Assembly: GCA_019694685.1 (NCBI GenBank)
Contig: JAIBBM010000024.1
Location: 698-64,697, forward strand
Source of the DNA: Leptospirales bacterium
GTDB taxonomy: Bacteria > Spirochaetota > Leptospiria > Leptospirales > Leptonemataceae
Reading direction: 5' to 3'
DNA: 64,000 nt
In this document: piece after piece, positions 6,647-55,020 of the stretch
How the letters are laid out: each line of letters opens with the position of its first letter
Numbering within the stretch: the first letter of the stretch is position 1
Translations under genes and position numbers: made by a program
Notes under the pieces: model-generated
What the model saw: only the letters and a program-made list of their open reading frames with translations
Databases searched by the model: none
Told to the model about the DNA's origin: nothing

Positions 6647-6704
6647 AATTTTCAGATTGCCGCCTATGTAAACGCAGATCGACTCCGAAAATAAAGCTGG
6701 GCCT

Positions 6705-7535
6705 ATGAAACTTCGCAGAGTATCCCTTTCCGTCCTCGGTTTTTTGCTCGCCTCTGCTGTATTTTCAGCCCTGCCCCGTGTGGCCCCGCTGATGGAAGGT
6801 CTTTCCGGTAGCGGCCAGAGCCCCGGCTATAGCAGGGTTCCCATACTCTGCTTTCACGATCTAAACGGCCGGGGCCGTTATTCGATCACGAGCGCCACAT
6901 TTCGTCATTTCATGAAAAGGCTACGCGATGAGAACATCGCTGTGATCCCGCTGGCAGAAGTGGTGGAACGATCCCAGAATAAACGGCTCCTTGAGAAACC
7001 CGCCGTTGCCATCACTGTGGATGACGACTATGAAGGAGCCGTTCGAATTGCGGCTCCCATCCTTCGCGAATTCGGTTACCCTGCCACGTTCTTCGTTTAT
7101 ACAGGCGGGATTCATACAGATCCAGCAGAGGGCATGTCCTATGACGATCTTCGCCGTCTCCTGAAAGAAGGATTTGACGTTCAAAATCATTCGCACACGC
7201 ACACTGCCTTCCATGTTCCGCGAAAAGGTGAATCCGCAGCGGAATACGAACAGAGATTAGTTGTGGAAATTGAGGATTCGCGCAAAATTCTAGAAAAGAA
7301 TCTAATGGGACATAAGATTCGCTTTTTCGCCTATCCAATGGGTTACCACACTCCCGCACTGCGCGAAAGAGTATTTAAGGCAGGTTACGAACTGGTTGTG
7401 ACGACAGACGCACGTCCAGTGGACCTTACGCGCCCGTTTAATGGCTCATTTGACAGGCGAACCATTGAACTGGACGGCGGCGTTGCAGAATTAATTTTCG
7501 AACAAGCAATTCAGATCGCGAAAAAGGCGATTTAG
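6705..7535 (+). CDS. Exported polysaccharide deacetylase (NodB homology domain)
   Basis: 276 aa. Signal peptide MKLRRVSLSVLGFLLASAVFSA. NodB motifs ITVDDDYEG, ATFFVYTG and HSHTHTAF. Confidence 0.8.
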   Translation: MKLRRVSLSVLGFLLASAVFSALPRVAPLMEGLSGSGQSPGYSRVPILCFHDLNGRGRYSITSATFRHFMKRLRDENIAVIPLAEVVERSQNKRLLEKPAVAITVDDDYEGAVRIAAPILREFGYPATFFVYTGGIHTDPAEGMSYDDLRRLLKEGFDVQNHSHTHTAFHVPRKGESAAEYEQRLVVEIEDSRKILEKNLMGHKIRFFAYPMGYHTPALRERVFKAGYELVVTTDARPVDLTRPFNGSFDRRTIELDGGVAELIFEQAIQIAKKAI

Positions 7536-7560
7536 CGTCACAAACGCCCGATAATTACGA

Positions 7561-7589
7561 TTGACACGACCTTTTTATCGTCGTACTAC
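7561..7589 (+). promoter_or_regulatory. Candidate sigma70-like promoter for the cyclase operon
   Basis: TTGACA (7561..7566), an exact 17-nt spacer, then TACTAC (7584..7589). AGGGGG lies at 7595..7600, 7 nt before the TTG start at 7608. The implied leader is very short, so this is tentative. Confidence 0.3.
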
Positions 7590-7607
7590 CTGGCAGGGGG
7601 CGGAACC

Positions 7608-10343: not shown

Positions 10344-10350
10344 GGACATC

Positions 10351-12486
10351 ATGCAGCAATTCGAAGTGTTCGGCACCCGACTTCCTGGACAAAGAGACGA
10401 CTGGCTCTTCATCGGAGGCAGCGCGCTTGTCATTTTGATTTTTGGTGCGCTGCTGTTCTGGGACTTCAATCGAAAGAATTTCGGAGGTGGTGGCGAAGTG
10501 ATCGGCACCATCACATTCAAGCATCGCACAGCGCAACGTAAGTTCGCTTCACAGGTCATCTGGGACGATCTGGATACGGAAACTCCCCTCTATAACAGAG
10601 ACGCGATTCGCACTGCGGAATCTTCGGAAGCTGTAGTCACTCTCAAAAACGGAACCAAGATTCAGCTCGACGAATCCACCATGATCGTTCTAAACATTTC
10701 AGACAAATCAGCAGACATTGATTTTGCATACGGCTCCGTGCAGGCAAAGCAGGATCAGAAAGCTGGCCAGGAAGTGGCCGCTCTCAACATCAAGACGCAA
10801 GACAACAAAGTCATTTCTATTCAAAACTCAGACGTCAAACTCTCGAGAAACGAAGGAGAGGATCTCTCTCTCACCGTGCAGCGCGGTCAGGCGAATGTTC
10901 AGACTTCAGACGGTAAAACTCAGAAAGTAGAGAAGGATCAAAAGGCAACCATTGCGGCCGAAATCCAGGTGCGAAAGGTGGTACTTCGCCCCACTGCTCC
11001 AGACGACGGTGCGCGATCCTTCATCACTGAAAATCAAAAGGCATTTGCATTTGCATGGGAAAAACCAACCGAAGCGCTCACATTTGAAATCGCATCGGAC
11101 AGATCCTTCTCAAGAATTATCACTCGCGTCACAACGGCCGGCCCCGGAACCAGCGTTGCTCTGGGAGACGGGTCTTACTTCTGGAGACTGGCAGCACAGG
11201 ACAAGACAGGCAAAATCGATTATAGCGACTTTAGAAGATTCACTGTGATTCGAAACGCACCGGCGGTGCTTCTTTCGCCCGTGTCTGGCGCGCAATTCGA
11301 TTACGTAACGGATGACCCTCTCGTAAACTTCACATGGTCGCGAAGCGAAACTGCGCAAGGATATGCGCTCGAAATTGCAGAGAACCCTGGCTTTGCAAGC
11401 GCAAGAAGAATCGAAACCTCTACCACATCGATCAGTCAAAAACTGCCTGCAGGTAACTATTTCGCACGAATCGTCACAACGAGCTCAGAAGCGGGGAATT
11501 TGCCGGGTGCAGCCACTGCATTTACAGTGGTGCGAAGACAGAAAACGCAGGCTCCTCTTGCTGTTCGCCCGGCTGGAGATAGAATTGCGCGCGTCATTCT
11601 TGAAAAAGAAGGCCTTGCGTTCTCCTGGAGCGTAGACCGCGACGTACGCAGCACTACTCTTGAAATTTCGCCCAATGCTTCTTTTGATCAAATCGCATTC
11701 AAAGGCACGGCAGATACGAACTTCCTGACTGTAAAACAAGGATTCCGCGAAGGTAAATACTACTGGAGACTCCAGGGAATCGACAGGAAAGGTAATGCGA
11801 CTGACTTTTCCAACGTCTCATCTTTTACCGTGGCCGAAATGGAGAAAGTGGCTCTCCGCGGTCCGGCAAACGGGGCTGATATGGATCCAGTTCAGGCACG
11901 TCTCGAAGGGGTTGGATTGTTGTGGGAAGGTCCGGATCTTTCGCAGTTCCGAGTGGTCGTTTCACCGAACCAGAACCTGGATCCCGCCGTGGTAAATCAG
12001 ATGACGTCTGCACGTGCATACTCTGCGCGAAACCTCGCACCGGGCCGGTACTACTGGAAAGTGCTCCTGGTTTCGCAGAACGGTTCTGTTCTTACGGAGA
12101 GCGAAATCAGATCGTTTAGCATTCTGGATCTTTTGCAACCTCCTCGCCTGCTCGAACCGCCTCGCGGACAGACAGTGGACATGACGGATAAGAACGAACT
12201 GTATTTCAAATGGGATCCGGTTCGCGGCGCGGAAGGCTACGACTTCACGCTTTTCCGCAGCTATCCGGACGGAAGGCGCACCGCCATCTTGAATCTCAAA
12301 ACACAGAGAGCGGATTTCATGCTACGGGATCTTGGAATCCTTGATGTGGGTGGATTCACATGGTCCGTCTCTGCGTATGGCCGCAATCAGGTAAGCGAAC
12401 CTGCAGCGTCTGATTTTACAATCACTCTGCGAATCGATGTTGGTAAGCCGGAGATTGTAACGCCGGGAGTCCAGTACACAGAATGA
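10351..12486 (+). CDS. Membrane-anchored FecR-domain protein with about five tandem Fn3/Ig-like repeats
   Basis: 711 aa. N-terminal TM WLFIGGSALVILIFGALLFW. FecR-like beta region: VVTLKNGTKIQLDESTMIVL. This is followed by repeats of roughly 85-95 aa, each ending in a G.YYWR/YFWR/YYWK .. F.V pattern. GAGGA lies 5 nt upstream of the ATG, 7 nt after the cyclase stop. Confidence 0.75.
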   Translation: MQQFEVFGTRLPGQRDDWLFIGGSALVILIFGALLFWDFNRKNFGGGGEVIGTITFKHRTAQRKFASQVIWDDLDTETPLYNRDAIRTAESSEAVVTLKNGTKIQLDESTMIVLNISDKSADIDFAYGSVQAKQDQKAGQEVAALNIKTQDNKVISIQNSDVKLSRNEGEDLSLTVQRGQANVQTSDGKTQKVEKDQKATIAAEIQVRKVVLRPTAPDDGARSFITENQKAFAFAWEKPTEALTFEIASDRSFSRIITRVTTAGPGTSVALGDGSYFWRLAAQDKTGKIDYSDFRRFTVIRNAPAVLLSPVSGAQFDYVTDDPLVNFTWSRSETAQGYALEIAENPGFASARRIETSTTSISQKLPAGNYFARIVTTSSEAGNLPGAATAFTVVRRQKTQAPLAVRPAGDRIARVILEKEGLAFSWSVDRDVRSTTLEISPNASFDQIAFKGTADTNFLTVKQGFREGKYYWRLQGIDRKGNATDFSNVSSFTVAEMEKVALRGPANGADMDPVQARLEGVGLLWEGPDLSQFRVVVSPNQNLDPAVVNQMTSARAYSARNLAPGRYYWKVLLVSQNGSVLTESEIRSFSILDLLQPPRLLEPPRGQTVDMTDKNELYFKWDPVRGAEGYDFTLFRSYPDGRRTAILNLKTQRADFMLRDLGILDVGGFTWSVSAYGRNQVSEPAASDFTITLRIDVGKPEIVTPGVQYTE

Positions 12487-40807: not shown

Positions 40808-41851
40808 TCAGGCAGAAAGTTTGTAGCCCAGCTGGACCAGTGTAAAGAGCAGTGCTGCCATTCCACCTGACATGGGGATCGTAAGAATCCAGGCCCACAC
40901 TACGCTGCGTGCCACTCCCCACCGCACGGCAGAAAGTCGCCTGGTGGCGCCCACGCCAATGATGGAACCATTGATCGTGTGGGTTGTGCTGACTGGAACG
41001 CCACCGTAGGTTGCCATAAACATGGCAGCCGCGCCTGCAGTTTCTGCAGCAAATCCACCCACTGGCTTGAGCTTGGTCAGACGTGAACCCATGGTATGAA
41101 CAATCCGCCATCCGCCAGATAGAGTTCCAAGCCCTATGGCAGCGTAGCATATGAGAACCACCCAGAAAGGAACATTCTTCGCTGCATCCGGAACTAGATT
41201 GGAAGCTGCCAGAGCAGCGGCGATGATACCGATTGTTTTTTGTGCGTCGTTTCCGCCGTGTCCGAGGCTGAAGAGAGCGGCAGACACAAGCTGCAATTTT
41301 CGAAACAATCGATCCACTCGATCAGGACTGAATTTGCGAAAGATCCACATGATCGCGACCATGATCAGAAAACCCAGAATGATCCCGACGAGAGGAGAAA
41401 TGATGATGAAAGAAACCGTCTTAATCCAGCCTGCAGAAATCAGAATCCCATTGGAAAAGCCGCCGTTCGCCGTGATCGCCGCACCCGCATACCCGCCAAT
41501 CAAAGCATGAGAAGAACTGGACGGCAGACCATAATACCAGGTGATCAAATTCCAGATAATCGCTCCAATCACGCCGCAGAGCAAAACCCATAGCTTTCTA
41601 AACGCGAAATCGTCCTGGATGAGTCCAATATTCACCATGTCTCCGCCGATTGTCTTGGCAACGTGTGTTCCAAAAATGGCAAAGGCGACGAAATTAAAAA
41701 AAGCAGCCCACAGTACAGCGCGACCAGGAGTCAGGACACGCGTGGAAACAACAGTGGCGATTGAATTTGCTGCATCGTGAAATCCATTGATGTAGTCAAA
41801 AGCAAGAGCAATGACCACGAATATGATTACGAAAACCAGAACTGCGTTCAT
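40808..41851 (-). CDS. Inorganic phosphate transporter, PiT family
   Basis: 347 aa. GFHDAANSIATVVSTRVL and a second half with GGNDAQKTIGII, the duplicated PHO4 signature. Confidence 0.9.
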   Translation of the reverse strand: MNAVLVFVIIFVVIALAFDYINGFHDAANSIATVVSTRVLTPGRAVLWAAFFNFVAFAIFGTHVAKTIGGDMVNIGLIQDDFAFRKLWVLLCGVIGAIIWNLITWYYGLPSSSSHALIGGYAGAAITANGGFSNGILISAGWIKTVSFIIISPLVGIILGFLIMVAIMWIFRKFSPDRVDRLFRKLQLVSAALFSLGHGGNDAQKTIGIIAAALAASNLVPDAAKNVPFWVVLICYAAIGLGTLSGGWRIVHTMGSRLTKLKPVGGFAAETAGAAAMFMATYGGVPVSTTHTINGSIIGVGATRRLSAVRWGVARSVVWAWILTIPMSGGMAALLFTLVQLGYKLSA

Positions 41852-41856
41852 AAACT

Positions 41857-42471
41857 TTATTTGTTCTTTACAACGACGCCTTCGAGCGCCTCTGCCACAT
41901 CTTTGCAGCGGTCGGTTGCATCTTCGAGAGTTTCAAAGATGCTCATCCACTTGATGACTTCGATCGGATCTTTTTCCTCTGTGAAGAGTCTGCGGATCGC
42001 ATCGCGGTATAGATGGTCTGCTTTCTTTTCGATGTCGTTGATGTTCTTCGGATGATCTCCCAGGTTTTTATTTTGTTCGAGCATGGAGAAAGCGTGTTCA
42101 AGCTCCACTGCACCCTGGTGAATCAATCTTGCAAATTCAACTGCCTCCGATCGAGGAGTCTTAACACTGTATGTATCAAAACGAAACGCCAGGCCATTGA
42201 TCGCGTCCATGATATCGTCTACTTCTTTGACCAGTAGAAAGATGTCTTCGCGATCAATCGGAGTGATGAAACTTGTGTTGAGTCTGGATGTAATGCTTGC
42301 GGCAATTGTATCGCACTGAACTTCTACGCTTTTGATTTCGTCTGCGAACTTGTGATGATTTCCGAAATCGTCAAACAGGCGAAGGAAGATTTCACTGCCC
42401 GCTCGCACCCTCGCTGCAAGTTCTGATAGGGACCGGAAGTATTTTTCTTCCTTTGGAATGAAGCTGAACAT
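41857..42471 (-). CDS. DUF47 / PhoU-like phosphate transport regulator
   Basis: Starts MFSFIPKEEKYF. Helical PhoU-like repeats (DREDIFLLVKEVDDIMD; EKKADHLYRDAIRRLF). This is the canonical partner directly upstream of PiT, with a 5-nt gap. Confidence 0.8.
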   Translation of the reverse strand: MFSFIPKEEKYFRSLSELAARVRAGSEIFLRLFDDFGNHHKFADEIKSVEVQCDTIAASITSRLNTSFITPIDREDIFLLVKEVDDIMDAINGLAFRFDTYSVKTPRSEAVEFARLIHQGAVELEHAFSMLEQNKNLGDHPKNINDIEKKADHLYRDAIRRLFTEEKDPIEVIKWMSIFETLEDATDRCKDVAEALEGVVVKNK

Positions 42472-42569
42472 GACAAACCCCTGACACAGTTTTGTAATCA
42501 CAAGACTGGGGTGCACTTCCGCGCTGTCCCGCAGGATTTCACAGCCTCGATCTGTTTTTTTTGTGTGAT

Positions 42570-43028
42570 TTAGAGTGCTGGCAGGTTCAGAAAAAGAGTC
42601 GCTTTCTTGCCCGTGCCCCAGTGCAGGTCACAAAAAATGTTTCTACCCTTGCGAAAGCAGCTCACTTCGTGGTTTCGGCCCTGAATGGAAATAGGAAGGG
42701 AGAATTCGAATTTTTCTGAGATTTCGCGCTGAGCGGATCCGACGAGGATGTTTAGAATTTCGCGCGCAGTGTCTCCGACCATCGGGTCTTCAAAAGGAGA
42801 TTTAGTCTGAGTGAAACGCTCTGCCGCATCCATGGCGCTGTCTGCGTCAAACGCAAGCACTACGCACGCGGGTGCCTTCGATGAAATGGTGATGCATGCG
42901 CTCACGTCCGCGCGAACGGGATAATCTACGTGTTCGGCAATGGGCCCCTGTGTCATGTCTACGGAAAGCATGTCGCGAAACGTAGTTTTGAGACATGTAG
43001 AGAAAGCCAGTATGTGCGAAGTGTTCAC
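42570..43028 (-). CDS. CheX/CheC-like chemotaxis phosphatase-fold protein
   Basis: 152 aa with a GTG start preceded by GAGG. DTAREILNILVGSA resembles the CheX/CheC D/E-x3-N-x3-G helix. It lies 13 nt downstream of the CheY-like gene. Confidence 0.6.
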   Translation of the reverse strand: MNTSHILAFSTCLKTTFRDMLSVDMTQGPIAEHVDYPVRADVSACITISSKAPACVVLAFDADSAMDAAERFTQTKSPFEDPMVGDTAREILNILVGSAQREISEKFEFSLPISIQGRNHEVSCFRKGRNIFCDLHWGTGKKATLFLNLPAL

Positions 43029-43041
43029 GTTTCCATCCCTC

Positions 43042-43407
43042 TTAATGCAGAAATTCCTGAATGTTCTCCCAGAGCACGCTGCCTCGAACTGGTTTTTCGA
43101 TGTAAGTGTTTACACCGGCCTTCCCTGCTTCCAATACTTTTTCTTTGTCGGTGACAGAGGTTACCATGACGATTGGAACGTCTTTCCCGGAGCCTCGCAC
43201 CTGCTTCACAAAAGAAAGACCATCTACCACAGGCATCTGCCAGTCCAGGAGAACCAGATCGATGCTTTCGCTTGCGAGTTTGTCCAGGGCTTCTTGCCCG
43301 TTGACCGCTTCCACCACTTCAATCTGTTTACCGCTGCCATAGCTTGCCAGCGTGCTTTTAATCACGCTTCGCATCATCGCAGAATCGTCCACTACAAGTA
43401 TCTTCAT
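43042..43407 (-). CDS. Single-domain CheY-like response regulator
   Basis: MKILVVDDSAMMR, LVLLDWQMPVVDG, IVMVTS, YIEKP. All receiver landmarks (DD, D, T, K) are present. Confidence 0.9.
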   Translation of the reverse strand: MKILVVDDSAMMRSVIKSTLASYGSGKQIEVVEAVNGQEALDKLASESIDLVLLDWQMPVVDGLSFVKQVRGSGKDVPIVMVTSVTDKEKVLEAGKAGVNTYIEKPVRGSVLWENIQEFLH

Positions 43408-43447
43408 TACAGATGTCAGATTCGAGACGCCGGGGTATGCCGGCAAT

Positions 43448-45868
43448 TCAATCCCGCTTCTCCAGAACAGACTCGGGCAGAACCACGATGAATTTGGTGA
43501 ATGTTCCTCTTTTGGTCTCTACTCGAACATTGCCTCCGAGCGCTCTGGCTTCTTCTTCCACTACATCGAGACCCACTCCACGGCCCGCGCTTTCTGTAAC
43601 TCGCTCTGCCGTGCTAAAGCCTGGCCGGAAAATCAATCTCAGCACTTCTGCAGGAGATGCAACGTCCGCCTGTTCTTGCGTCAAGATTCCCTGTTCGATC
43701 GCGTGACGGGCGATTCTCTCCTGATCCAGGCCCGCCCCGTCATCTTCCACCGCAATTCGAACCTGGCCGTCATTGTGAGTCATCAGAAGGCGTATGGAAC
43801 CATCGATTGCTTTTCCTTTCTCTTTTCGCGCGTCGGGCGTTTCAATTCCATGAACTACAGCGTTTCGAATCATGTGACCCAGCATCGCGCGAACGCGAAC
43901 CAGAGCATCTCCACGGAGAACTCCCGCACGATTCTCAAACTCAAACGCAACAGCTTTGCCCGCGGCGAGTGCTTCCTGCTCTACAATTCTTTCACATCTT
44001 TCTGCAATCTCTGCAGATGCATCGAGAGTCTTGACTCTAAACACGTCCTTCATGTTTACAATCTTGTCAAACAACGCTCCGCCATCCTGAATTTCCGCGA
44101 TGAGTTTCTTTCCAAGTTCCGCGGCGCCTGCAAGCTTATCCTGTGCACTCGATTCTGGATCTTTGCGAATTGCATCGAGCACATCTTCCAGTTCGTGAGC
44201 ATTCTTCGCAATCGCGTCGAGACCGAGCGCGCGAGCGTTTCCCTTGAGAGTGTGCACTTCTCTAAAACACAAATCAAGAGCGGATCTGTCCGATCCTGCA
44301 AGAGCAAGCTTCTCGACCACCACATCCGCTGTTCGGCCTGCTTCCTCCAGAAAAGATTTAAAAACATTAGGATCGAGATTCAGAATCTGATATAGCTTTT
44401 CAATGCGCGCAGACTGCTCTGCTTCGCGTTCTGCAAGAGCGCGCTCCAGTTTCATTTGTTCCGTGCGATCGTCGATGACAACGAGCAGCTTCTCTATCTG
44501 TCCTGCGCCGTTCTTAACTCTCGAAAATGAAAAGGAAAGAACCTTCTCCTGATCCCCTGACAGGATCCGAACTTCAGAAAGCGGATTGGCAGCGGCGAAC
44601 ATTCGCATGGACATGAATGGATTTTCAATGAGCTGTCCTACAAAGTCACGAACAGAATTCTGCAACTGAGCCGGGAACAAATCTGCAAATTCCAACCCTT
44701 CCGGTTGCTTGCCCAGCATATCGGGAACTCTTCCTGAATATTCAGAGTTTACTTTTCCGGATCTGTCTATGGTCAGGATGCCTTCCTGAATGTTTCGAAG
44801 AATGTCAGACATCTGACCGCGGCTTTCATTGAGTTCCGCCGTACGTTCTTTAACACGATCTTCCAGAGTAGTGGCATACGTTCGCACTTCGCGGACCATG
44901 TCGTTGAACGTGGATGCAAGAATTCCAAGCTCATCCTTACTCTTAACTACAATTTGAGTAGAATAATCACGCGCTTTCACCCTTTCTGCGCCGGCGCGAA
45001 GAGCAACAATGGGGCTCGCAATCAAACGAGAAAGAGCAAGAGAAAGAATGATTGCAAGAACCACGCTTCCACCAATGACCGCGATACATATATAGTAAAG
45101 TTTCTCAAGTAAGTTGAACTGTGAGGTTGCACTCATGTCAATCCCCATCACGGCCGCGACGCTGCCATCCGCTCGAAGAATGGGGACATACGCGGACATC
45201 CATTTGCCCCACTGATCTTCGTAATATTCCTCACTCGTGCGCACCTTGCCATCGAATGCAGCCATGAGACCTGGCTGAGCGGATACGTTGTAGAGCTTTC
45301 CAATCTCTGAGGCCTCTTCTTCTGGATCAATCTTGCCGTTCCCGTTTTCATCTCCTGCTTCGTAGTCTGCGTCTGCGATGAATTTGAGAATGCTTCTGTC
45401 TTTGACTTCCGGAATGGGAACGAGCAAGTACGTAAAGCGCACGCGCGGCGGATCGTCTTTTGGCCAGGGCTCCTGACCTAGAATTCCGAGATTCACCATC
45501 CCTTTGCGTGAAGCATTCTTGATCTGTCTGAGAGCCTGGACCACCAGAATGAAATCATCCGATTTTTCAATTTCGTGCACTCGCGAACCGGAGATCACAG
45601 AGATGCTTTCGCCGGGCCCGATAGACAGGTGGTCTTTGTTGCGCGAAGAATCTTTCTCTGACAGTTCATTGAGCCGATCGATCGCACGCCTGTGTTCTGC
45701 GCTGAATATGAACTGGCCGGTGCGGCCCATATCTGCCAGTCTTTCTGCAAGTTCATTCCAGACGTTCTGTCGCGTTATCTTGTAAAAGTAACCCAGGCCG
45801 GCACTGGTGGTGACGAAAGCTAGCATCGACGTTGCGAAAGCAAGCTTCAAACCGAATGAAATGCGCAT
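43448..45868 (-). CDS. Membrane sensor kinase with CheA-type core: TM, extracytoplasmic domain, TM, HAMP, PAS-like, Hpt (P1), CheA-like ATPase (P4); no CheW-like P5
   Basis: 806 aa. TMs LKLAFATSMLAFVTTSAGLGYFY and ICIAVIGGSVVLAIILSLAL. HAMP: DELGILASTFNDMV. Hpt: CFREVHTLKGNARALGLD. P4: LGHMIRNAVVHGIE, VEDDGAGLD, FRPGFST, GRGVGLDVV. The protein ends about 25 aa after the G2 box. Confidence 0.8.
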   Translation of the reverse strand: MRISFGLKLAFATSMLAFVTTSAGLGYFYKITRQNVWNELAERLADMGRTGQFIFSAEHRRAIDRLNELSEKDSSRNKDHLSIGPGESISVISGSRVHEIEKSDDFILVVQALRQIKNASRKGMVNLGILGQEPWPKDDPPRVRFTYLLVPIPEVKDRSILKFIADADYEAGDENGNGKIDPEEEASEIGKLYNVSAQPGLMAAFDGKVRTSEEYYEDQWGKWMSAYVPILRADGSVAAVMGIDMSATSQFNLLEKLYYICIAVIGGSVVLAIILSLALSRLIASPIVALRAGAERVKARDYSTQIVVKSKDELGILASTFNDMVREVRTYATTLEDRVKERTAELNESRGQMSDILRNIQEGILTIDRSGKVNSEYSGRVPDMLGKQPEGLEFADLFPAQLQNSVRDFVGQLIENPFMSMRMFAAANPLSEVRILSGDQEKVLSFSFSRVKNGAGQIEKLLVVIDDRTEQMKLERALAEREAEQSARIEKLYQILNLDPNVFKSFLEEAGRTADVVVEKLALAGSDRSALDLCFREVHTLKGNARALGLDAIAKNAHELEDVLDAIRKDPESSAQDKLAGAAELGKKLIAEIQDGGALFDKIVNMKDVFRVKTLDASAEIAERCERIVEQEALAAGKAVAFEFENRAGVLRGDALVRVRAMLGHMIRNAVVHGIETPDARKEKGKAIDGSIRLLMTHNDGQVRIAVEDDGAGLDQERIARHAIEQGILTQEQADVASPAEVLRLIFRPGFSTAERVTESAGRGVGLDVVEEEARALGGNVRVETKRGTFTKFIVVLPESVLEKRD

Positions 45869-45978
45869 ATCCTAATCTCAAAACGGAAAGCTCCCTGTCG
45901 AGTGGTTCGCGTCAGAATGCCGGCAAATCGGTCACAAAATTTCCATTTATCTCCAGGCTCATTTTCAGGAAATGGCAT

Positions 45979-47148
45979 ATGGATTATTCACAAAAATCCC
46001 TGATCATCCACGAGCAGCTTCGCGGAAAGATCGGCGTTTCCAGCAAGATGAAAATTGAAACCATGGACGATTTGTCCGTCGCCTACACTCCAGGTGTGGC
46101 GGCTCCCTGTCTTGCGATCGCGGGCAACCGGGAGCTTGCCAAAAAACTCACCATCAAGCACAACTCAGTTGCTGTGGTTACAGACGGATCTGCAGTTCTT
46201 GGCCTCGGAAACATTGGACCGGAGGCAGCCATTCCTGTAATGGAGGGAAAAGCTCTACTCTTCAAGCAACTGGCAGACATCGACGCATGGCCTGTGTGTC
46301 TTGATACGCAGGACACAGACGAAATTGTAGAAACAGTTCGTCGCATTGCACCTGTATTTGGCGGCATCAACCTCGAAGACATATCTGCGCCGCGTTGTTT
46401 TGAAGTGGAGCGAAGGCTTCAGGATCTGGGCATTCCGGTTTTCCATGACGATCAACACGGAACTGCCATTGTGCTACTGGCCGGACTTCTCAACGCCTGC
46501 AGAATCACAGGAAAACAAATTTCGGATCTTCGCATCGTGATCAATGGTGCGGGAGCGGCAGGCATCGCCATCACGAACATACTGCGCGATGATGGTCCCG
46601 GAGACAAGATCATCGCAAAAGACATCATCGTGTGCGATACTCAGGGAGCCATTCATGCCGGGCGCACGGATCTGAATTCTGAAAAGCAGGAATTGTTACG
46701 TTATACGAACTTTGAAAATCGTAGCGGATCGATTCAAGAAGTGATGAAGGGTGCAGACGTGTTCATTGGCGTGAGCAAAGCAAATCTACTGACTGCGGAC
46801 CATGTACGCACCATGGCAAAAGACTCCATGATCTTTGCTCTGGCCAACCCTGTCCCTGAGATCATGCCTGCAGAGGCTAAACTCGGCGGAGCAGCGATCA
46901 TTGGTACGGGTAGAAGTGACTTCCCAAACCAGGTCAACAATGCTCTTGCTTTTCCTGGCATCTTTCGCGGAGCGCTGGATGCGGGTGCGCGAAAAATCAC
47001 AGATGAAATGAAAATCGCCGCAGCACGCGCTCTGGCAGAAATGGTAAAAAACCCGACGCCCGAGCACATACTGCCCCGAGTTCTGGATCCTGCGGTATCC
47101 GCTACGGTTGCAAAAGCAGTCTACAAAGCTGCGCACGACCAGGCCTGA
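45979..47148 (+). CDS. NAD(P)-dependent malic enzyme (short form)
   Basis: Starts MDYSQKSLIIHEQLRGKI. Contains YTPGVA, ITDGSAVLGLGNIGP, FGGINLEDI, VFHDDQHGTAIV, NGAGAAGIA and ALANPVPEI. Confidence 0.9.
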   Translation: MDYSQKSLIIHEQLRGKIGVSSKMKIETMDDLSVAYTPGVAAPCLAIAGNRELAKKLTIKHNSVAVVTDGSAVLGLGNIGPEAAIPVMEGKALLFKQLADIDAWPVCLDTQDTDEIVETVRRIAPVFGGINLEDISAPRCFEVERRLQDLGIPVFHDDQHGTAIVLLAGLLNACRITGKQISDLRIVINGAGAAGIAITNILRDDGPGDKIIAKDIIVCDTQGAIHAGRTDLNSEKQELLRYTNFENRSGSIQEVMKGADVFIGVSKANLLTADHVRTMAKDSMIFALANPVPEIMPAEAKLGGAAIIGTGRSDFPNQVNNALAFPGIFRGALDAGARKITDEMKIAAARALAEMVKNPTPEHILPRVLDPAVSATVAKAVYKAAHDQA

Positions 47149-49910: not shown

Positions 49911-51425
49911 TTACTCTTGAAGTTTTCTCAGAGCGTCTCGCTTACGCACTGCTATGCGAAGGTATTCCTGAGCTTCTCGGTTCCCTGGTTCGATCAATAG
50001 AATATTCTCAAAAGTCTTCACTGCCCGGTCAAACTCTCGCGCATTGTAATCCGCAATCCCCAGTTTGAGGTCCTCTGCCAGGCGCTGCTTCTGCCTGGCG
50101 CGAACTCCGTCCAGTGCCATGGCAGCACGAGTGTTGTTTGGCATGTATTGTACTGCAGAACTGTAAAACCTGGCTTTGTCATACGGATCGACTGCCGCGT
50201 CTCCGCGAGCGCGGTACTGTTCACTGATTCCGAGTTTCGCTTCGTCCAGGCCGGCCATCGCTTCTTGATTTCCAGCATTCACGCTGAGAACGTTTTTATA
50301 TTCCTGGATCGCTCTTTCAAAATTCTTTGCGGCCAGGTACTGGCGCGCGGATTCCATCATTTGCCTGGTTTGCGCGCCGCTCTGCCTTTCTACAATGGCG
50401 TCCCTGTAACGTTTCGCGGCCGCGTCATCGGGCGCTTTCTTCAAGATGGCATCAAAAACAATCAGTGCCGACTTTGGTTTACCCTCATTCATCAAGTTGA
50501 CGGCTGATAGAAACAATCTAGTGCGACTGGCAGTCTCTTTGACTGATTGCGGAATCGTCAGACCGGACTCTTCCGCATAACGCTCGTTTAACGAGAAATA
50601 CGCCTGATCCGGGAAAACGACTCTGCGCGGCCCACATCCTTTCCCCTGAAGAACAGTACCTGCCATCTCTGCCGTCACACGCCCGATGCGAGTGTAGTCT
50701 GGACGCAATGAGAACGTCGCACCTGCTTGCATAAGAGATGAGAACGAAGTCATCAGCACAATCTTGTTCTTCTTGCAGAAGTCAGAAACAATCTGAAATT
50801 GTTCGCTGTCATAAAGGGCATCTGGCACTAGATAAAAAGCGTCCGCTTTCCCCTGGATACTTTCGAGAGCTCGCGGAAGCTCCGATTTGCCAGAAAGTCT
50901 GCGCTTGTGATATTCAACGCCCAACTGCAAATCCAGATACTCCCCTTCAGAGGCTGCAAATTCGCCTTCAGGCGTGGAATAAAATGCATACACGTTACGT
51001 GCGGAAGGCGAAAGCTCGCGAAGAGACTTGAAGAATTCAGAAAGGGATACGTCCATACTTGTGCCGCACACGTCGGGCCTGGAAGCAACACCGACCGCGC
51101 GCGGACTCGATACCATGGAAAAGACGATCTTGCTTCCGTGGCCTTCCGCAAGCGCAAGCTGCGTTGCCTTGGATCCGATGGTCACAATGAGATCTGCATC
51201 TGATCTTTCTGAAAAAAACCGCGCTGGATCTGGAAGGGCATCCACATACACTGGTTGATCAATTTGTGCAAGCCCCGGATCAAACGAAGAATAGAAACCT
51301 GTCAGTGCATCCGCATAGATGCCAGTGTCAGAAGATACGATGACTGCAATGTGCCTGCGCTCCGCAATCAACCCGGCCGCGCACAACATCGCGGCAGTTA
51401 GAATGCATGCATAGACGCGAATCAT
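49911..51425 (-). CDS. Exported ABC-type substrate-binding-like (ABC_sub_bind-like) domain fused to TPR repeats
   Basis: 504 aa with a signal peptide (ACILTAAMLCAAG). The N-terminal roughly 290 aa follow the periplasmic binding-fold pattern (HIAVIVSSDTGIYADALTGF, LIVTIGSKATQLA, KADAFYLVPDALY, DYTRIGRVTAEMA). The C-terminal half has TPR-like helices. The start forms an ATGA overlap with the upstream stop. Confidence 0.6.
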   Translation of the reverse strand: MIRVYACILTAAMLCAAGLIAERRHIAVIVSSDTGIYADALTGFYSSFDPGLAQIDQPVYVDALPDPARFFSERSDADLIVTIGSKATQLALAEGHGSKIVFSMVSSPRAVGVASRPDVCGTSMDVSLSEFFKSLRELSPSARNVYAFYSTPEGEFAASEGEYLDLQLGVEYHKRRLSGKSELPRALESIQGKADAFYLVPDALYDSEQFQIVSDFCKKNKIVLMTSFSSLMQAGATFSLRPDYTRIGRVTAEMAGTVLQGKGCGPRRVVFPDQAYFSLNERYAEESGLTIPQSVKETASRTRLFLSAVNLMNEGKPKSALIVFDAILKKAPDDAAAKRYRDAIVERQSGAQTRQMMESARQYLAAKNFERAIQEYKNVLSVNAGNQEAMAGLDEAKLGISEQYRARGDAAVDPYDKARFYSSAVQYMPNNTRAAMALDGVRARQKQRLAEDLKLGIADYNAREFDRAVKTFENILLIEPGNREAQEYLRIAVRKRDALRKLQE

Positions 51426-52627
51426 TTTGCCACCCGCAGCCCGGCCGCCTGAGGAATCTCAATGCACACCATGGTCAAATCGTCTGGAAGGCGATCTGAC
51501 CCTGCAAATTCGCGGCGATATTCCAGCATACCCTGCACTACTGTCTGAGGAGTAGTGCCCGGTTTCAAACGAAGCCTGTCTGCGATCTGAAGCAAATCGA
51601 TCACGTCTCCTTCTGCATTGACGCTTTCAATGAGACAATCCGTGTAGATGAAGATTCGATCTCCTTCAAACATTTGAAATGGCACTGAGTGATATTCGAT
51701 GTTGCGAAACACACCCAGCATGGGCTGCTCTGTAAAAAGAAGTTCCACCTGTCTGGACGAATCGGCGGGAACGTACAGAACCGGAGGATGCCCTGCAGTT
51801 AAGTATTCCAGACGATGATTTGAATCAATATGAACGGCGCATGCAGTCAGAAAGTAATTGGAATGAGTGAGTTCGCACAAATCGCGATTCGCAGCTTTCA
51901 CAAGCTCTGCCAGATCCATTTTGCCAGAACTGGCTTCCTCGAATCTTCTTTTGAAAATTGACTTCGCAGCAATGGAGATGAGACTGGAAGCAACTCCGTG
52001 TCCCATCACATCAGCAATCACCACCCACGTGCCGTTCTCTGACTCAAAAAATTCCCACATGTCCCCGCCAAGCTCTGTCATTGCCTGGTAGGTTCCGAAA
52101 ACGTTTACAAGAGTATGCTTCTCGAAGTCCTGCGAAAGGATTTGCGCCTGCACTGCGTGTGCAACCTGGAGCTCTCCTTCTAGAATCTGCTTTTGTCTTT
52201 CGAGCTGTCTGTTCTGCTTTTCAATCGTCGCAAGCGCGTCTTCTAGATCTGTTGTGACGCGGATGAACTCGTCGTAGCCCGCCTGGAACGCTTCTGCATC
52301 TTCCCGCGTTTCAGTGACGTCCTGAACGCTGAGCAAAGTTCCGTGCGAAGGAATGTTTCTTTTTAAAAAGCGAATATGACGAATCGAACCGTCCGCGCCG
52401 CTTGCATCAAGGCCGCTGGATACGGGAGCCTGGCTTTCAAGAAAGCTGCGAAACTTCTTTCTTGCTTTTTCATCGAAGACTCTTTCTTCCCAGACGCTGT
52501 CACCCAGATCGGAAGCAGTGATTCCCAGCAGCTTCTCTGCCGCCGGGTTCATGGCCATTAGTTTACCGTCTCGCAGAACCAGTTCCGCGGAAGGCGACTC
52601 CTGCCATAAATCCCGGACGTCTACCAT
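51422..52627 (-). CDS. Cytoplasmic PAS + PP2C/SpoIIE protein-serine phosphatase (RsbU/RsbP-like)
   Basis: PAS-like N-terminus (LVLRDGKLMAMNPAAEKLLG), coiled coil, then PP2C motifs ELGGDMWEF, VIADVMGHGVASS, YLTAGHPP, IYTDCLIE, DDLTMVCIE. The ATG at 52627 shares one nucleotide with the upstream TGA. Confidence 0.85.
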   Translation of the reverse strand: MVDVRDLWQESPSAELVLRDGKLMAMNPAAEKLLGITASDLGDSVWEERVFDEKARKKFRSFLESQAPVSSGLDASGADGSIRHIRFLKRNIPSHGTLLSVQDVTETREDAEAFQAGYDEFIRVTTDLEDALATIEKQNRQLERQKQILEGELQVAHAVQAQILSQDFEKHTLVNVFGTYQAMTELGGDMWEFFESENGTWVVIADVMGHGVASSLISIAAKSIFKRRFEEASSGKMDLAELVKAANRDLCELTHSNYFLTACAVHIDSNHRLEYLTAGHPPVLYVPADSSRQVELLFTEQPMLGVFRNIEYHSVPFQMFEGDRIFIYTDCLIESVNAEGDVIDLLQIADRLRLKPGTTPQTVVQGMLEYRREFAGSDRLPDDLTMVCIEIPQAAGLRVAK

Positions 52628-52995
52628 CAAATCCCTCGAACAGATGTGTACTTTGACTTTCGCGCAATCACATCAAGGGCACGAAAGGAAGCTGACTGAA
52701 CTTTTCTATTGGAATCGTACACGAACTCACCCTGAATCTTTTTGTCTGCCAGAGTGCGAAGAAGAGCAATCAGAGGAGGAATACTTGCTGAATTCATATA
52801 TTCCAGAGGCACGAAGTTGCACTTCACTCCAAGCTTTGCTTTAAGTGCCTCTGCGATCACCTGCTCGAAATAAGGATCCAGCACATCTTCTGGATTGGGG
52901 GCATGCATGGCACCTTTCCAGTTCAATTCGATATTCGAACCGCTGACGACTGCTTCGATTTCGAAGTCCTGCATGGTCAAATTCGAAAGAGCCAT
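52627..52995 (-). CDS. SiaC/DUF1987-like small regulatory (phospho)protein
   Basis: 122 aa. IELNWKGAMHAPNPEDVLDPYFEQVI ... VKCNFVPLEYMNSASIPPLIALLRTL ... GEFVYDS follows the DUF1987 pattern: G.S.PEN..FY.PV, then L.Y.N(T/S)SS, then W.YD. Pattern recognition only. Confidence 0.55.
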   Translation of the reverse strand: MALSNLTMQDFEIEAVVSGSNIELNWKGAMHAPNPEDVLDPYFEQVIAEALKAKLGVKCNFVPLEYMNSASIPPLIALLRTLADKKIQGEFVYDSNRKVQSASFRALDVIARKSKYTSVRGI

Positions 52996-53462
52996 TATGC
53001 ATTCTCCAGCGGCCGGCGGGCCAGAATCGTCACGCTTTCGCCGTCAATATCAGCACTGAGATGGTACTCTCCTTCGTACGCTATGCGATACAATCCCATC
53101 CGGCTGTGCCCGTCGGGATCTTCCTTCAACTGTTCCAATCGTGCTACATACAATTCAAAAGGATCTCCGTCGCGGATACGATCAATGACCGAGCGAAGAG
53201 CGTCTTTGTTCTGGGCGTTCTTACTATAGTTCTTCACGCGAAAGGCACAATATCCGGCCTGCGAATCAAATGAGAATTCAACGGGTCGTCCTGAATCAGA
53301 GTCGGTGTATTTCAAAGCGTTCTCAAGCAACTCAATGGCGGTGACTGTGGTCTGCTCGAGGAAATCTTTGCTGAGTCCTTTGAGAGCAGGATCCGTTTGC
53401 AGAGATTCTTTGATCTTCTTGATCACGTTCCATTCTGGTTCAATTGTAAGCGAAAATGACAT
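52995..53462 (-). CDS. Small GHKL-type serine kinase-like protein (SiaB / anti-sigma-kinase-like)
   Basis: 155 aa. N-box-like AIELLENALKYT. Glycine-rich lid-like HSRMGLYRIAYEG. It sits between a PP2C gene and the DUF1987-like gene, with a 1-nt gap and a 1-nt overlap respectively. Confidence 0.5.
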   Translation of the reverse strand: MSFSLTIEPEWNVIKKIKESLQTDPALKGLSKDFLEQTTVTAIELLENALKYTDSDSGRPVEFSFDSQAGYCAFRVKNYSKNAQNKDALRSVIDRIRDGDPFELYVARLEQLKEDPDGHSRMGLYRIAYEGEYHLSADIDGESVTILARRPLENA

Positions 53463-53463
53463 A

Positions 53464-55020
53464 TTACTTCTCCCGCCGAATCATGGCGAAAGTGATATCG
53501 TCGGCTGGCCTGAGCCCCCCTGTATGCGCACGCAAGCTGTTCATGATTCGCTCTTCCAGGCCGGCCAGATCCGAGGTTCCGTGCTTACGCACGATCTCCT
53601 CTATTTTTTCCTGACCGAACATTTCTTTTTTCCCATTCATAGATTCTACGAGGCCATCCGTAAACAAGAAAAGGAGATCCCCCACAGACAGCTTGAACTT
53701 GCCCGCGCGCATGTCCTTTTTGACGCCAGCGTCCACCCCCAGCCAGAAACCATCTGTCGGAACCACTTCCAGCTTCTTGCCGGCGGCCCTGTAGATCAAT
53801 GCATCCTGATGGAGACCGGCAAAAGAGAAATTCCCTTTTGCATCCGCGCGATAAAACGCGGCAGTCATGTATTTCCTTTCCCTCAATCGTCGAATATTGG
53901 CGAATAGAACGTCGTTCACATGCATGAATGCCTGCGAGGGCTCAAGGTCTGGCGAAACTTCCATAGTAGAATGAATGGCAGTCTGCGCCATGAGCATGGT
54001 TAGACCTGCGCGAAGACCGTGACCTGAAACATCTCCGATGAAAAACCAGAATCTGGGCGAGCGCCCGTCTATGTGTATGACATCCACATAATCTCCGCCC
54101 ACTTCATCTGCAGTCTGCATGAAGCCTCGAAACGAATAAGGGCCGACCTTTTGCGGCTCTGGAATCATGGCCACTTGAATGCCCTGAGCAATCTCAAGCT
54201 CTCGCTTGATGGCTGCCTGCTCCGTCTTGAGTCTCTCCGAATCCTTCAAACTGCGCGACATGTGATTGAAGGTTGCGCCCAGCTGTCCGATTTCTCCTGC
54301 AGTCGTGATCTGAACTGTAACGCCGAGTTCCCCGCCCGCGATCCTCTCCGCCGCGGATGCAAGCGATTCGATGGGTCTCGATAACCTTCCTGAAATGAGA
54401 AATGCAAATACAAGTGAACCCAGAAGCAAGAAGACAGAGACAAACAGGATGGAGTTGCGAACCTCAACGATGGGCGCGTAGATTACTTTTGTATCAAACT
54501 CAAAAACAACCGTGCCCAGACGAATCGGATCCGCGTGTGCCGGAACAAAAAAGAGAGGGAATGCAAATCGAAGGATGCCCGCTACTTCTCTGTATTGCAG
54601 ATTGTTGATAGAATTCAAGTATGCCAGATCTTGCGCCGGGATTTCATCCGATGAATGATTTTCACCTGAATGAGCAATGATTCGGCCGTATGTGGGGCTC
54701 TTCTTCCTGGGCGAGCTTTTCTGACTCACAACGTACGCGGCGAGAAATCCAGCGGGCCCTGAGCTTTTGACTGCACGAACCGCTTCTTTCGTAGAAGTGA
54801 ATACGTCATCGTTTAGTAGCAGCTCGTCCTGAGCCTGCGCCACAACGTTGATGGATAGATTGCGACAAACATCGAGTGTCTTTTCGATCAGGATCTTCTG
54901 GTACTGGAAGATCACCACAAAGGAAAGTGCCAGAACAGAGAAGCTTACGATGCCGGAGGTCAGGATCATCAGGCGAACGCGGATCTTGAGTCTACCGCGC
55001 AGCGTTGAAAACAGCCCCAT
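53464..55020 (-). CDS. Membrane sensor PP2C/SpoIIE phosphatase with HAMP (SiaA/RsbU-like)
   Basis: 518 aa. TM1 VRLMILTSGIVSFSVLALSFVVIF, a roughly 150-aa outside region, TM2 ILFVSVFLLLGSLVFAFLI. HAMP: AGEIGQLGATFNHMS. PP2C: EVGGDYVDV, FFIGDVSGHGLRAGL, FAGLHQ, LFTDGLVE, DDITFAMI. Confidence 0.85.
   Translation of the reverse strand: MGLFSTLRGRLKIRVRLMILTSGIVSFSVLALSFVVIFQYQKILIEKTLDVCRNLSINVVAQAQDELLLNDDVFTSTKEAVRAVKSSGPAGFLAAYVVSQKSSPRKKSPTYGRIIAHSGENHSSDEIPAQDLAYLNSINNLQYREVAGILRFAFPLFFVPAHADPIRLGTVVFEFDTKVIYAPIVEVRNSILFVSVFLLLGSLVFAFLISGRLSRPIESLASAAERIAGGELGVTVQITTAGEIGQLGATFNHMSRSLKDSERLKTEQAAIKRELEIAQGIQVAMIPEPQKVGPYSFRGFMQTADEVGGDYVDVIHIDGRSPRFWFFIGDVSGHGLRAGLTMLMAQTAIHSTMEVSPDLEPSQAFMHVNDVLFANIRRLRERKYMTAAFYRADAKGNFSFAGLHQDALIYRAAGKKLEVVPTDGFWLGVDAGVKKDMRAGKFKLSVGDLLFLFTDGLVESMNGKKEMFGQEKIEEIVRKHGTSDLAGLEERIMNSLRAHTGGLRPADDITFAMIRREK

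Follow-up and report, generated by a model that had tools for sequence, protein, structure and literature searches.

Can a kinase with the catalytic parts of CheA do its work outside a chemoreceptor array, under a sensor of its own? The question is raised by three adjoining genes on the minus strand of a 64,000-nucleotide stretch of DNA from a Leptospirales bacterium (assembly GCA_019694685.1, contig JAIBBM010000024.1), which is called the window here and by whose positions the features below are given. The genes, at 42570 to 45868, code for an 806-residue histidine kinase with an N-terminal transmembrane (TM) sensor, a CheY-like single-domain receiver and a predicted CheX-type CheY-P phosphatase, and an earlier note, made from the DNA letters by themselves, had proposed that the three make up a self-contained, chemotaxis-like pathway. 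Judging from the sequences and a structure model, we consider it quite probable that they constitute an array-independent phosphorelay that is built of chemotaxis parts and is complete in itself. That the pathway is self-contained is strongly backed by the linkage of its genes over about 90 loci, while the term chemotaxis-like is apt for the parts, motility being only a candidate for the output. The module comprises the following features, of which the kinase and its domains are given first (with residue numbers of the protein) and the two partners last.

43448..45868, minus strand: sensor-fused CheA-type histidine kinase, whole coding sequence with stop codon, 806 residues (open reading frame list; Pfam, NCBIfam, PDB, Foldseek)
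45038..45856, minus strand: N-terminal sensor, with TM1 at ~5–27, periplasmic domain at ~28–253 and TM2 at ~254–277 (hydropathy)
44792..45034, minus strand: HAMP domain, 279–329, and signalling helix, 330–359 (Pfam HAMP, E 2.7e-10; helix 341–359 in the AlphaFold2 (AF2) model)
44468..44782, minus strand: family-specific PAS-like domain, 363–467 (AF2 predicted local distance difference test score (pLDDT) >90; hidden Markov model (HMM) of the region)
44381..44464, minus strand: conserved linker helix, 469–496 (...EKLYQILNLDP), leading into Hpt helix A (family alignments; AF2 helix)
44051..44371, minus strand: Hpt or P1-like four-helix bundle, 500–606 (Pfam Hpt, E 1.8e-11; PDB CheA P1 structures 2ld6 and 1tqg)
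43451..44020, minus strand: CheA-type P4 ATP-binding domain, 617–806, with N, G1, F and G2 boxes (NCBIfam, PDB, Foldseek, AF2, tree)
43042..43407, minus strand: CheY-like single-domain receiver, 121 residues (Pfam Response_reg, E 3e-26; PDB CheY matches)
42570..43028, minus strand: predicted CheX-type CheY-P phosphatase, 152 residues, with E90-x-x-N93 (Pfam CheX, E 2.7e-14; PDB 3iic, 6vpw and 3h2d)

Read from its N-terminus, the kinase consists of a TM segment, a periplasmic domain of about 225 residues, a second TM segment, HAMP, a helix, the PAS-like domain, another helix, Hpt and P4. Pfam finds HAMP at residues 279–329, a weak PAS_4 at 359–471 (E 0.025), Hpt at 504–584 (E 1.8e-11) and HATPase_c at 662–799, and one Hpt-P4 HMM match spans residues 478–805 of the 806. 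The phospho-acceptor His539 is encoded at 44252–44254 and belongs to the Hpt motif CFREVHTLKGNARALG (residues 534–549), and the ATPase motifs are located at residues 665–676, 708–715, 747–753 and 762–770. The earlier description of a sensor with HAMP, a PAS-like segment, Hpt and a CheA-like ATPase was borne out by the Pfam, NCBIfam and PDB searches, with the motifs where it had placed them. Of the two TM segments that it drew around an outside domain of about 230 residues, the second (~254–277) is strongly hydrophobic (Kyte-Doolittle 2.74) and the domain is close to that size, while the first (~5–27) is weaker (Kyte-Doolittle <1.6).

Several domains that would be expected of a CheA or of a common sensor kinase are missing from this protein. 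HisKA, H-kinase_dim (P3) and CheW (P5, PF01584) gave no Pfam match in the 806 residues, and no P3 hairpin (PF02895) was matched by Pfam between Hpt and P4, where the AF2 model has only a 10-residue loop. A P2 domain was not found in the kinase either, and in the model this loop leaves no space for P2 or for a P3 hairpin. The C-terminus lies 36 residues beyond the G2 box, at the last P4 strands, in agreement with the original statement that the protein stops soon after G2 and carries neither P5 nor P2.

The ATPase domain is a CheA P4. The best NCBIfam model for this region is CheA (CheA_Halo, E 1e-56), with residues 621–801 falling on profile positions 359–539 of 666, that is, on P4, and the closest solved structures are the P4 domains of E. 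coli and T. maritima CheA (E 4e-36 to 1e-31). The P4 portion of the model could be superposed by Foldseek on T. maritima CheA P4 with a TM-score of 0.85–0.90 and a root-mean-square deviation (rmsd) of about 2 Å. A P4 profile scored 17–27 bits on the HisKA-type kinases of the same genome as against 135–254 bits on its P5-less kinases, the window kinase reaching 254. When 112 ATPase domains were placed in a maximum-likelihood tree, for which the HisKA-type domains of this genome served as outgroup, all Hpt-linked ATPase domains grouped with CheA P4, and the branch that separates them from the HisKA type has a length of 3.0 and a support of 100/99, which settles in favour of CheA a point of affinity that the earlier note had singled out for checking.

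The AF2 model was built for residues 340–806 on a 39-sequence family alignment (mean pLDDT 91.5, predicted TM-score (pTM) 0.75), and it leads from the last part of the signalling helix (341–359) through a PAS-like alpha/beta domain (363–467), the linker helix (469–496), Hpt and a loop to P4 (617–806). The four Hpt helices are at residues 500–523, 528–547 with His539, 551–569 and 576–606, after which the 10-residue loop follows. Taken as a whole, the model bears only a loose and weak Foldseek likeness to PAS-DHp-CA kinases.

Such a likeness might still suggest an ordinary class I or hybrid kinase that has acquired an extra Hpt and hides a cryptic DHp between PAS and Hpt. The order of TM, periplasmic domain, TM, HAMP and PAS in the N-terminal half is indeed typical of class I, NCBIfam reports partial WalK and AtoS matches over residues 209–482, and the topology weakly resembles those of YF1 and VicK. 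However, the only histidines of the kinase are at 59, 80, 98, 539, 558, 665, 673, 698 and 722, and since none of them lies at residues 99–538, between the PAS-like segment and Hpt, a DHp H-box is not possible there. Pfam finds no HisKA-family match, the kinase contains no receiver domain, and its ATPase is a CheA P4 across the 100/99 branch, so that we regard the class I explanation as highly improbable. The protein has the P1 and P4 of a CheA; measured against the published definition of CheA it falls short in P3 and P5 and in the absence of a sensor, and it departs from class I in lacking DHp and in the type of its ATPase.

Searches with the Hpt-P4 core revealed close relatives of the same layout in metagenome-assembled genomes (MAGs) of Leptospirales and Spirochaetia, together with remoter relatives that have GAF, CZB or PilJ in their N-terminal halves. 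Among 264 homologues, 46 have Hpt and P4 in one unbroken profile match; every one of these 46 ends no more than 24 residues past P4, and none of the homologues whose Hpt and P4 are separated by a gap does so. When 45 members were checked with Pfam, Hpt and HATPase_c were present in all of them, GAF in 8, HAMP in 5, PilJ in 4, CZB in 2, and Ser/Thr-kinase plus STAND NTPase modules in 4–5 giant proteins; H-kinase_dim, CheW, HisKA and Response_reg were found in none. The residues invariant in these 45 members are H539, those of the N box (N669, H673, G674 and E676) and of G1 (D709, D710, G711 and G713), and the F and G2 boxes. In a search of the representative library, the top 150 matches were dominated by multi-Hpt ChpA proteins, whose scores are additive, and the size of the family has therefore been sampled rather than counted.

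From the family alignments, it is also apparent that the approximately 130 residues preceding Hpt are conserved regardless of the domains upstream, with the consensus DIL..V..G ... NPL.E ... L.F.F.R ... LVV..D.T ... E.LYQIL.L.P, and that N428-P429 and D467 of the PAS-like domain are near-invariant. An HMM of the PAS-like region matches 46 of 50 family proteins (the four that it misses are 288–357 residues long and probably fragments) and just one of 214 other proteins of the CheA set, which likewise ends at P4. Run against 20,243 open reading frames of the genome, it matches the four P5-less kinases and nothing else (E 4e-35 to 7e-25), the window kinase at residues 350–478 with E 4.3e-35. It follows from this distribution that the PAS-like domain, the linker helix, Hpt and P4 are the invariant core of the family and that HAMP is one of several upstream inputs. 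The proposal that HAMP and a coiled coil replace P3 and P5 therefore has to be modified: HAMP is present in just 5 of 45 members, while a linker helix with a PAS-like domain precedes Hpt in 46 of 50.

The family has a single origin. Of the 62 P4 domains without P3 and P5 in the tree, 60 form one clade (support 100/99, stem 0.38) with spirochaete, Steroidobacter and Polyangiaceae members, and the two proteins outside it are atypical, the first having two ATPase domains and the second eight Hpt domains; the window kinase belongs to a 99/91 subclade with P0002, P0003, P0004, P0131 and P0195. Outgroup rooting nests the family in canonical CheA through nodes with supports of 88/87, 99/93, 83/77 and 99/90. 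An origin from a CheA, through loss of P3 and P5 and fusion to a sensor, is therefore favoured over a relic that predates CheA, a candidate that we marked down on the strength of this nesting (support 88–99), with the caveat that a root branch of length 3 is shaky and that the CheA classes are unevenly sampled. The sister group (99/90) has four to six Hpt domains, H-kinase_dim (P3), HATPase_c (P4), CheW and Response_reg, which is the ChpA type; this relation is provisional, the canonical CheA sample being biased towards ChpA-like proteins.

The two partner proteins resemble those that serve canonical CheA. The receiver starts at the ATG at 43407 (MKILVVDD), 40 nt past the kinase stop codon, a 134-residue open reading frame with a TTG start being over-extended, and CheX starts at the GTG at 43028, 13 nt past the receiver stop and behind a GAGGGA ribosome-binding site; with these starts, the close spacing of the three genes read earlier stands. 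All CheY switch residues are there in the receiver (D7, D8, D55, T83, Y102 and K105), and its best PDB matches are all CheY, H. pylori CheY1 being the top one (3.6e-23). The 152-residue protein, already suspected to be CheX- or CheC-like, gave a Pfam CheX match of 2.7e-14 and matched the solved CheX/CheC-like structures 3iic (1.9e-5), 6vpw (2.5e-4) and 3h2d, with the catalytic E-x-x-N (E90 and N93) in register in the sequence alignment; by these alignments, it appears to be a CheX with the CheX/CheC fold. The CheX of V. cholerae has been shown experimentally to be a CheY-P phosphatase (PMC12799141), and that paper also cites CheX work in B. burgdorferi and T. maritima.

Neither MCP (MCPsignal), CheW, CheR nor CheB was matched on the contig that holds the window, which confirms the lack of these genes in the surroundings, and a survey of the architecture and its linkage, as had been suggested at the outset, gave the same picture across genomes. 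In a first sample of 31 loci (28 hits found on surveying 301 genomes of the phylum, and three MAG loci), the receiver and CheX genes adjoin the kinase gene in all 31, in the order receiver-CheX-kinase or kinase-receiver-CheX, and no CheW gene lies within ~8 kb. The sister family, with 46 genomes in the phylum survey, nearly always has canonical CheA alone. A second sample came from scanning contigs with a single Hpt peptide pattern, which makes its taxonomic picture a biased one; it yielded 80 loci, 78 of them with a full kinase open reading frame, and in 60 of these 78 both receiver and CheX are adjacent, with no CheW within 5 kb. The second sample includes Leptospiraceae and other Spirochaetota MAGs, one Polyangiaceae MAG and about 60 Gammaproteobacteria, mostly Steroidobacterales, with Steroidobacter agaridevorans SA29-B and Peristeroidobacter agariperforans KA5-B as cultured carriers. 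Among the 18 loci that do not have both genes, the 14 with neither make up an expansion of the GAF/STAND type, and in most of them a contig end interrupts the upstream side.

Members of this kind (L053–L066) were seen in a Leptospiraceae MAG and in the MAG 'Spirochaetota bacterium P01_B01_bin.8', where Hpt-P4 is fused to GAF or to Ser/Thr-kinase/STAND modules in proteins as long as ~2000 residues. One MAG has at least 10 of them, with no receiver or CheX adjoining on the visible side, and they look like a lineage-specific expansion of orphan members.

The same gene arrangement bears on whether the kinase could be a decayed or mis-assembled CheA, non-functional after losing P3 to P5 by truncation, frameshift or contig error. 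The draft genome comes in 134 contigs and has a contamination of 5.8%, and the Leptospiraceae MAG locus L050 has only a 352-residue open reading frame, which would both agree with such an accident. Yet an intact receiver follows 40 nt past the kinase stop codon and CheX after it, the catalytic residues are all invariant, and more than 100 relatives in different phyla stop at the same point. An N-terminal sensor fusion, moreover, is not obtainable by truncation, and we find this explanation scarcely credible. L050 itself, with 70% identity to the core of the window kinase, is the closest relative from outside this genome, and it shows only the Hpt-P4 open reading frame, followed by receiver and CheX, despite 2 kb of upstream sequence at hand; the gene may have been frameshifted or split, or else Hpt and P4 may stand by themselves here.

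The genome contains four Hpt-P4 kinases, on contig C112 (that of the window) and on contigs C3, C90 and C1, and three canonical CheAs. Elsewhere in it there are also eight CheW-domain matches (in six open reading frames), about 11 MCPs, four CheR matches (three of them strong) and three CheB. At the C90 locus (4326–11247), the gene order is an adenylate/guanylate cyclase, a CheY-like receiver, CheX, an ODP-family di-iron protein (PF19583, E 1.5e-53), the kinase (653 residues, PAS-Hpt-P4) and a second cyclase. ODP is an oxygen/iron sensor that acts with a chemoreceptor in Treponema denticola; at C90, its gene is linked instead to a receptor-less kinase. The C1 locus (64777–68722) has a receiver, a TM-sensor-HAMP-Hpt-P4 kinase of 814 residues and a HAMP-PAS-HATPase_c_2 (RsbW-like) protein, with no CheX in this gene order, and the paralogue on C3 (9816–12085), after ruvC and ruvA, is cut by the contig end.

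The sensor of the window kinase has a feature in common with that of the C1 paralogue. No Pfam family and no PDB sequence was matched by the periplasmic domain, which might be Cache-like in fold. It contains an EF-hand-like loop, DENGNGKIDPEE (residues 173–184, window 45317–45352), that agrees with the 12-residue EF-hand calcium-binding loop pattern D-x-N-x-N-G-x-I-D-x-x-E, and the C1 paralogue has DANKNGKIDDDE at the equivalent position. The loop hints that the periplasmic domain may be calcium-dependent or calcium-sensing.

On the observed domain identities, the absence of P2, P3, P5 and DHp, the conserved catalytic residues and the gene linkage, a working mechanism can be drawn up, in which we infer the direction of phosphate flow, the gating by the PAS-like domain, the oligomeric state and the output. 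By way of TM2, HAMP and the signalling helix, a signal at the periplasmic domain would reach the PAS-like domain and the linker helix, and these two would set how readily His539, in the attached Hpt, gains access to the active site of P4. From His539, the phosphoryl group would move to Asp55 of the adjacent CheY-like receiver, which CheX, with its E90-x-x-N93, would reset. Dimerisation, if needed, could be provided by coiled coils of HAMP, the signalling helix and the linker helix in place of P3. Class I kinases reset their regulators through a phosphatase activity of their own, and an Hpt in place of DHp lacks this activity; a dedicated CheX would therefore make sense for a kinase that is based on Hpt, has no DHp and so no built-in phosphatase.

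A number of points weigh against an independent phosphorelay of this kind. Isolated CheA P1-P4 constructs autophosphorylate only weakly without receptors, and a high kinase activity is assumed here. The mechanism is put together from sequence and a structure model, and the latter is limited to residues 340–806 (a single-sequence model of the full length had a pLDDT of 41), so that it excludes the periplasmic domain and the HAMP-to-PAS junction. The GAF/STAND-type subgroup, 14 of the 78 loci, has no adjoining receiver or CheX. The genes near the module are often of PP2C/SpoIIE, RsbW-like, GGDEF-EAL or cyclase type and not motility genes, and the Polyangiaceae MAG carries the module without FliM. 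Finally, canonical CheW systems were present in all 14 of the module-bearing genomes tested, and cross-talk with arrays is therefore possible.

Cross-talk could even be the normal state of affairs, if the kinase were an auxiliary input to canonical arrays that exchanges phosphate with a canonical CheA in trans, with the P4 of either protein acting on the P1 of the other as in the split CheA3/CheA4 of Rhodobacter sphaeroides, or if its CheY and CheX served as a phosphate sink for the main pathway; the module would then not be self-contained. CheW-domain proteins in 14 of 14 genomes, FliM in 13 of 14 (a permissive finding only) and the three canonical CheAs, ~11 MCPs, CheR and CheB of the window's own genome would all allow this, and bipartite CheA acting in trans is documented (Berry et al. 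2023, PMC10782961). Against such a role, Hpt and P4 are fused via a 10-residue linker in every member, and this favours an intramolecular reaction. The kinase has its own receiver and phosphatase in ~90 loci, never beside CheW or CheA, and the four paralogues each have their own sensor, two of those other than the window kinase also their own receiver. We think it unlikely that the module feeds into arrays, and prefer the self-contained phosphorelay.

Where the signal of this phosphorelay goes is a separate matter. The leading single candidate is that the phosphorylated receiver binds the flagellar switch like CheY, to which we would give somewhat less than an even chance. The receiver is nearest to motor-binding CheYs, a fast phosphatase suits behavioural timescales, and FliM is present in 13 of the 14 genomes. 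The same core might instead have an output other than motility, in which the phosphorylated receiver would regulate either the phosphatases and kinases of a partner switch, such as SpoIIE/PP2C and RsbW-like ATPases, or enzymes of second messengers, such as GGDEF-EAL proteins and adenylate cyclases; this concerns the output step only, and we put it close to an even chance. Recurrent neighbours at the 31 loci of the first sample are TM-SpoIIE/PP2C (11), methyltransferase-like (8), RsbW-like ATPase (HATPase_c_2; 6), PAS-GGDEF-EAL (5) and dCache-HAMP-cyclase genes (4), of which all but the methyltransferase-like genes speak for such an output. The paralogue on C90 stands beside two cyclases and that on C1 beside the HAMP-PAS-HATPase_c_2 protein, a GGDEF gene comes after the module in a gammaproteobacterial MAG, and the Polyangiaceae MAG without FliM fits as well. 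On the other hand, a universal fourth gene was looked for among the 31 loci and none was found, the best matches of the receiver are motor-binding CheYs, a fast dedicated phosphatase fits second-scale behaviour, and 13 of the 14 genomes have FliM.

At some Spirochaetota loci (L029, L031–L033, L035, L036, L041 and L042), genes for a TM-SpoIIE/PP2C-TPR phosphatase, an RsbW-like ATPase, a 167-residue protein and a methyltransferase-like protein, the last of which faintly matches CheR, flank the module and make up a partner-switch set. In the window, a SiaABC-like partner-switch operon is located at 49911–55020, ~4 kb from the module.

On the other side of the module, 53 nt past CheX, two genes lie on the minus strand at 40808–42516, one for a PhoU_div/DUF47 protein (E 2e-23) and the other for a PHO4/PiT phosphate transporter (E 2e-95). 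No terminator was predicted between CheX and these two genes, and a single transcript may cover them and the module. They were considered as a part of the module and rejected, because they are missing from the syntenic Leptospirales locus L009. Upstream, a malic-enzyme open reading frame on the plus strand (45832–47148) has a listed TTG start that overlaps the kinase start. The orthologue at L009 is 389 residues long, and the malic enzyme therefore probably starts, as judged from this comparison, at an internal ATG (MDYSQKS...), in which case the malic-enzyme gene and the kinase operon would diverge from a common intergenic region of ~110 nt.

How does the family agree with what has been published on CheA? 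In a census of 13,673 CheAs by Berry, Andrianova and Zhulin 2023 (PMC10782961), P1, P3, P4 and P5 were present in all, CheW was detected in 100%, P3 was always found alongside P4 and CheW, and CheA is described as having no sensor domain. That set was drawn from MiST's CheA identification, which probably excludes kinases like the one in the window. In the full-text literature searched, we found no description of sensor-fused Hpt-P4 kinases, and absence there is no proof of absence. The family breaks three rules of the textbook picture, which the 2023 census repeats, namely that CheA lacks a sensor, that it always has P5 and that it is controlled only in arrays, and it keeps the catalytic chemistry of CheA and the CheY/CheX partners. 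It would probably escape any census in which CheA is recognised by its CheW domain and a sensor kinase by HisKA.

The module is a two-component-like circuit made from CheA, CheY and CheX parts, and it illustrates how a complex pathway can be reduced to such a circuit. For the regulation of P1-to-P4 access, an unresolved step in the control of CheA, it offers a simpler system with one polypeptide and a defined sensor, and its occurrence in the culturable and non-pathogenic Steroidobacter agaridevorans and Peristeroidobacter agariperforans makes it experimentally tractable. More tentatively, and with doubts of our own, we suggest that the family may represent a third histidine-kinase design, an Hpt-plus-P4 unit gated in cis by a PAS-like module in place of P3/P5 and arrays, and that in flagellated hosts its private CheY/CheX pair may give array-free, non-adapting, second-scale control of the motor in parallel with chemotaxis.

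Compared with the canonical CheA of E. coli and T. maritima, the window kinase shares the Hpt/P1 bundle, the HTLKG context of the histidine, the P4 boxes (33–38% identity, rmsd ~2 Å) and the CheY and CheX partners, but it is without P2, P3, P5 and a linked MCP or CheW and has its own TM sensor, HAMP and PAS-like domain. ChpA, the multi-Hpt CheA of the Tfp class, is the sister of the family in the P4 tree (99/90), whereas it retains P3, P5, a C-terminal receiver and many Hpt copies and has no sensor. In Rhodobacter sphaeroides, CheA4 (P3-P4-P5) phosphorylates the P1 of CheA3, as summarised in PMC10782961, which shows that a rearrangement of P1 and P4 can still be functional. Both of these proteins, however, keep P5 and sit in a cytoplasmic array, whereas the window kinase fuses P1 and P4 more tightly than any CheA and has lost P5. 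With the class I PAS-DHp-CA kinases such as WalK/VicK and YF1, it has in common an input through TM sensor, HAMP, PAS and helix, followed by a histidine bundle and an ATPase, yet its bundle is an Hpt, which is monomeric, where theirs is a dimeric DHp, its ATPase is of the CheA type and no intrinsic phosphatase is expected of it. The CheY-CheX pairs of spirochaetes, Thermotoga and Vibrio also consist of a single-domain CheY and an E-x-x-N CheX; there, they serve a canonical CheA in arrays, whereas here the pair is linked to a sensor-fused kinase.

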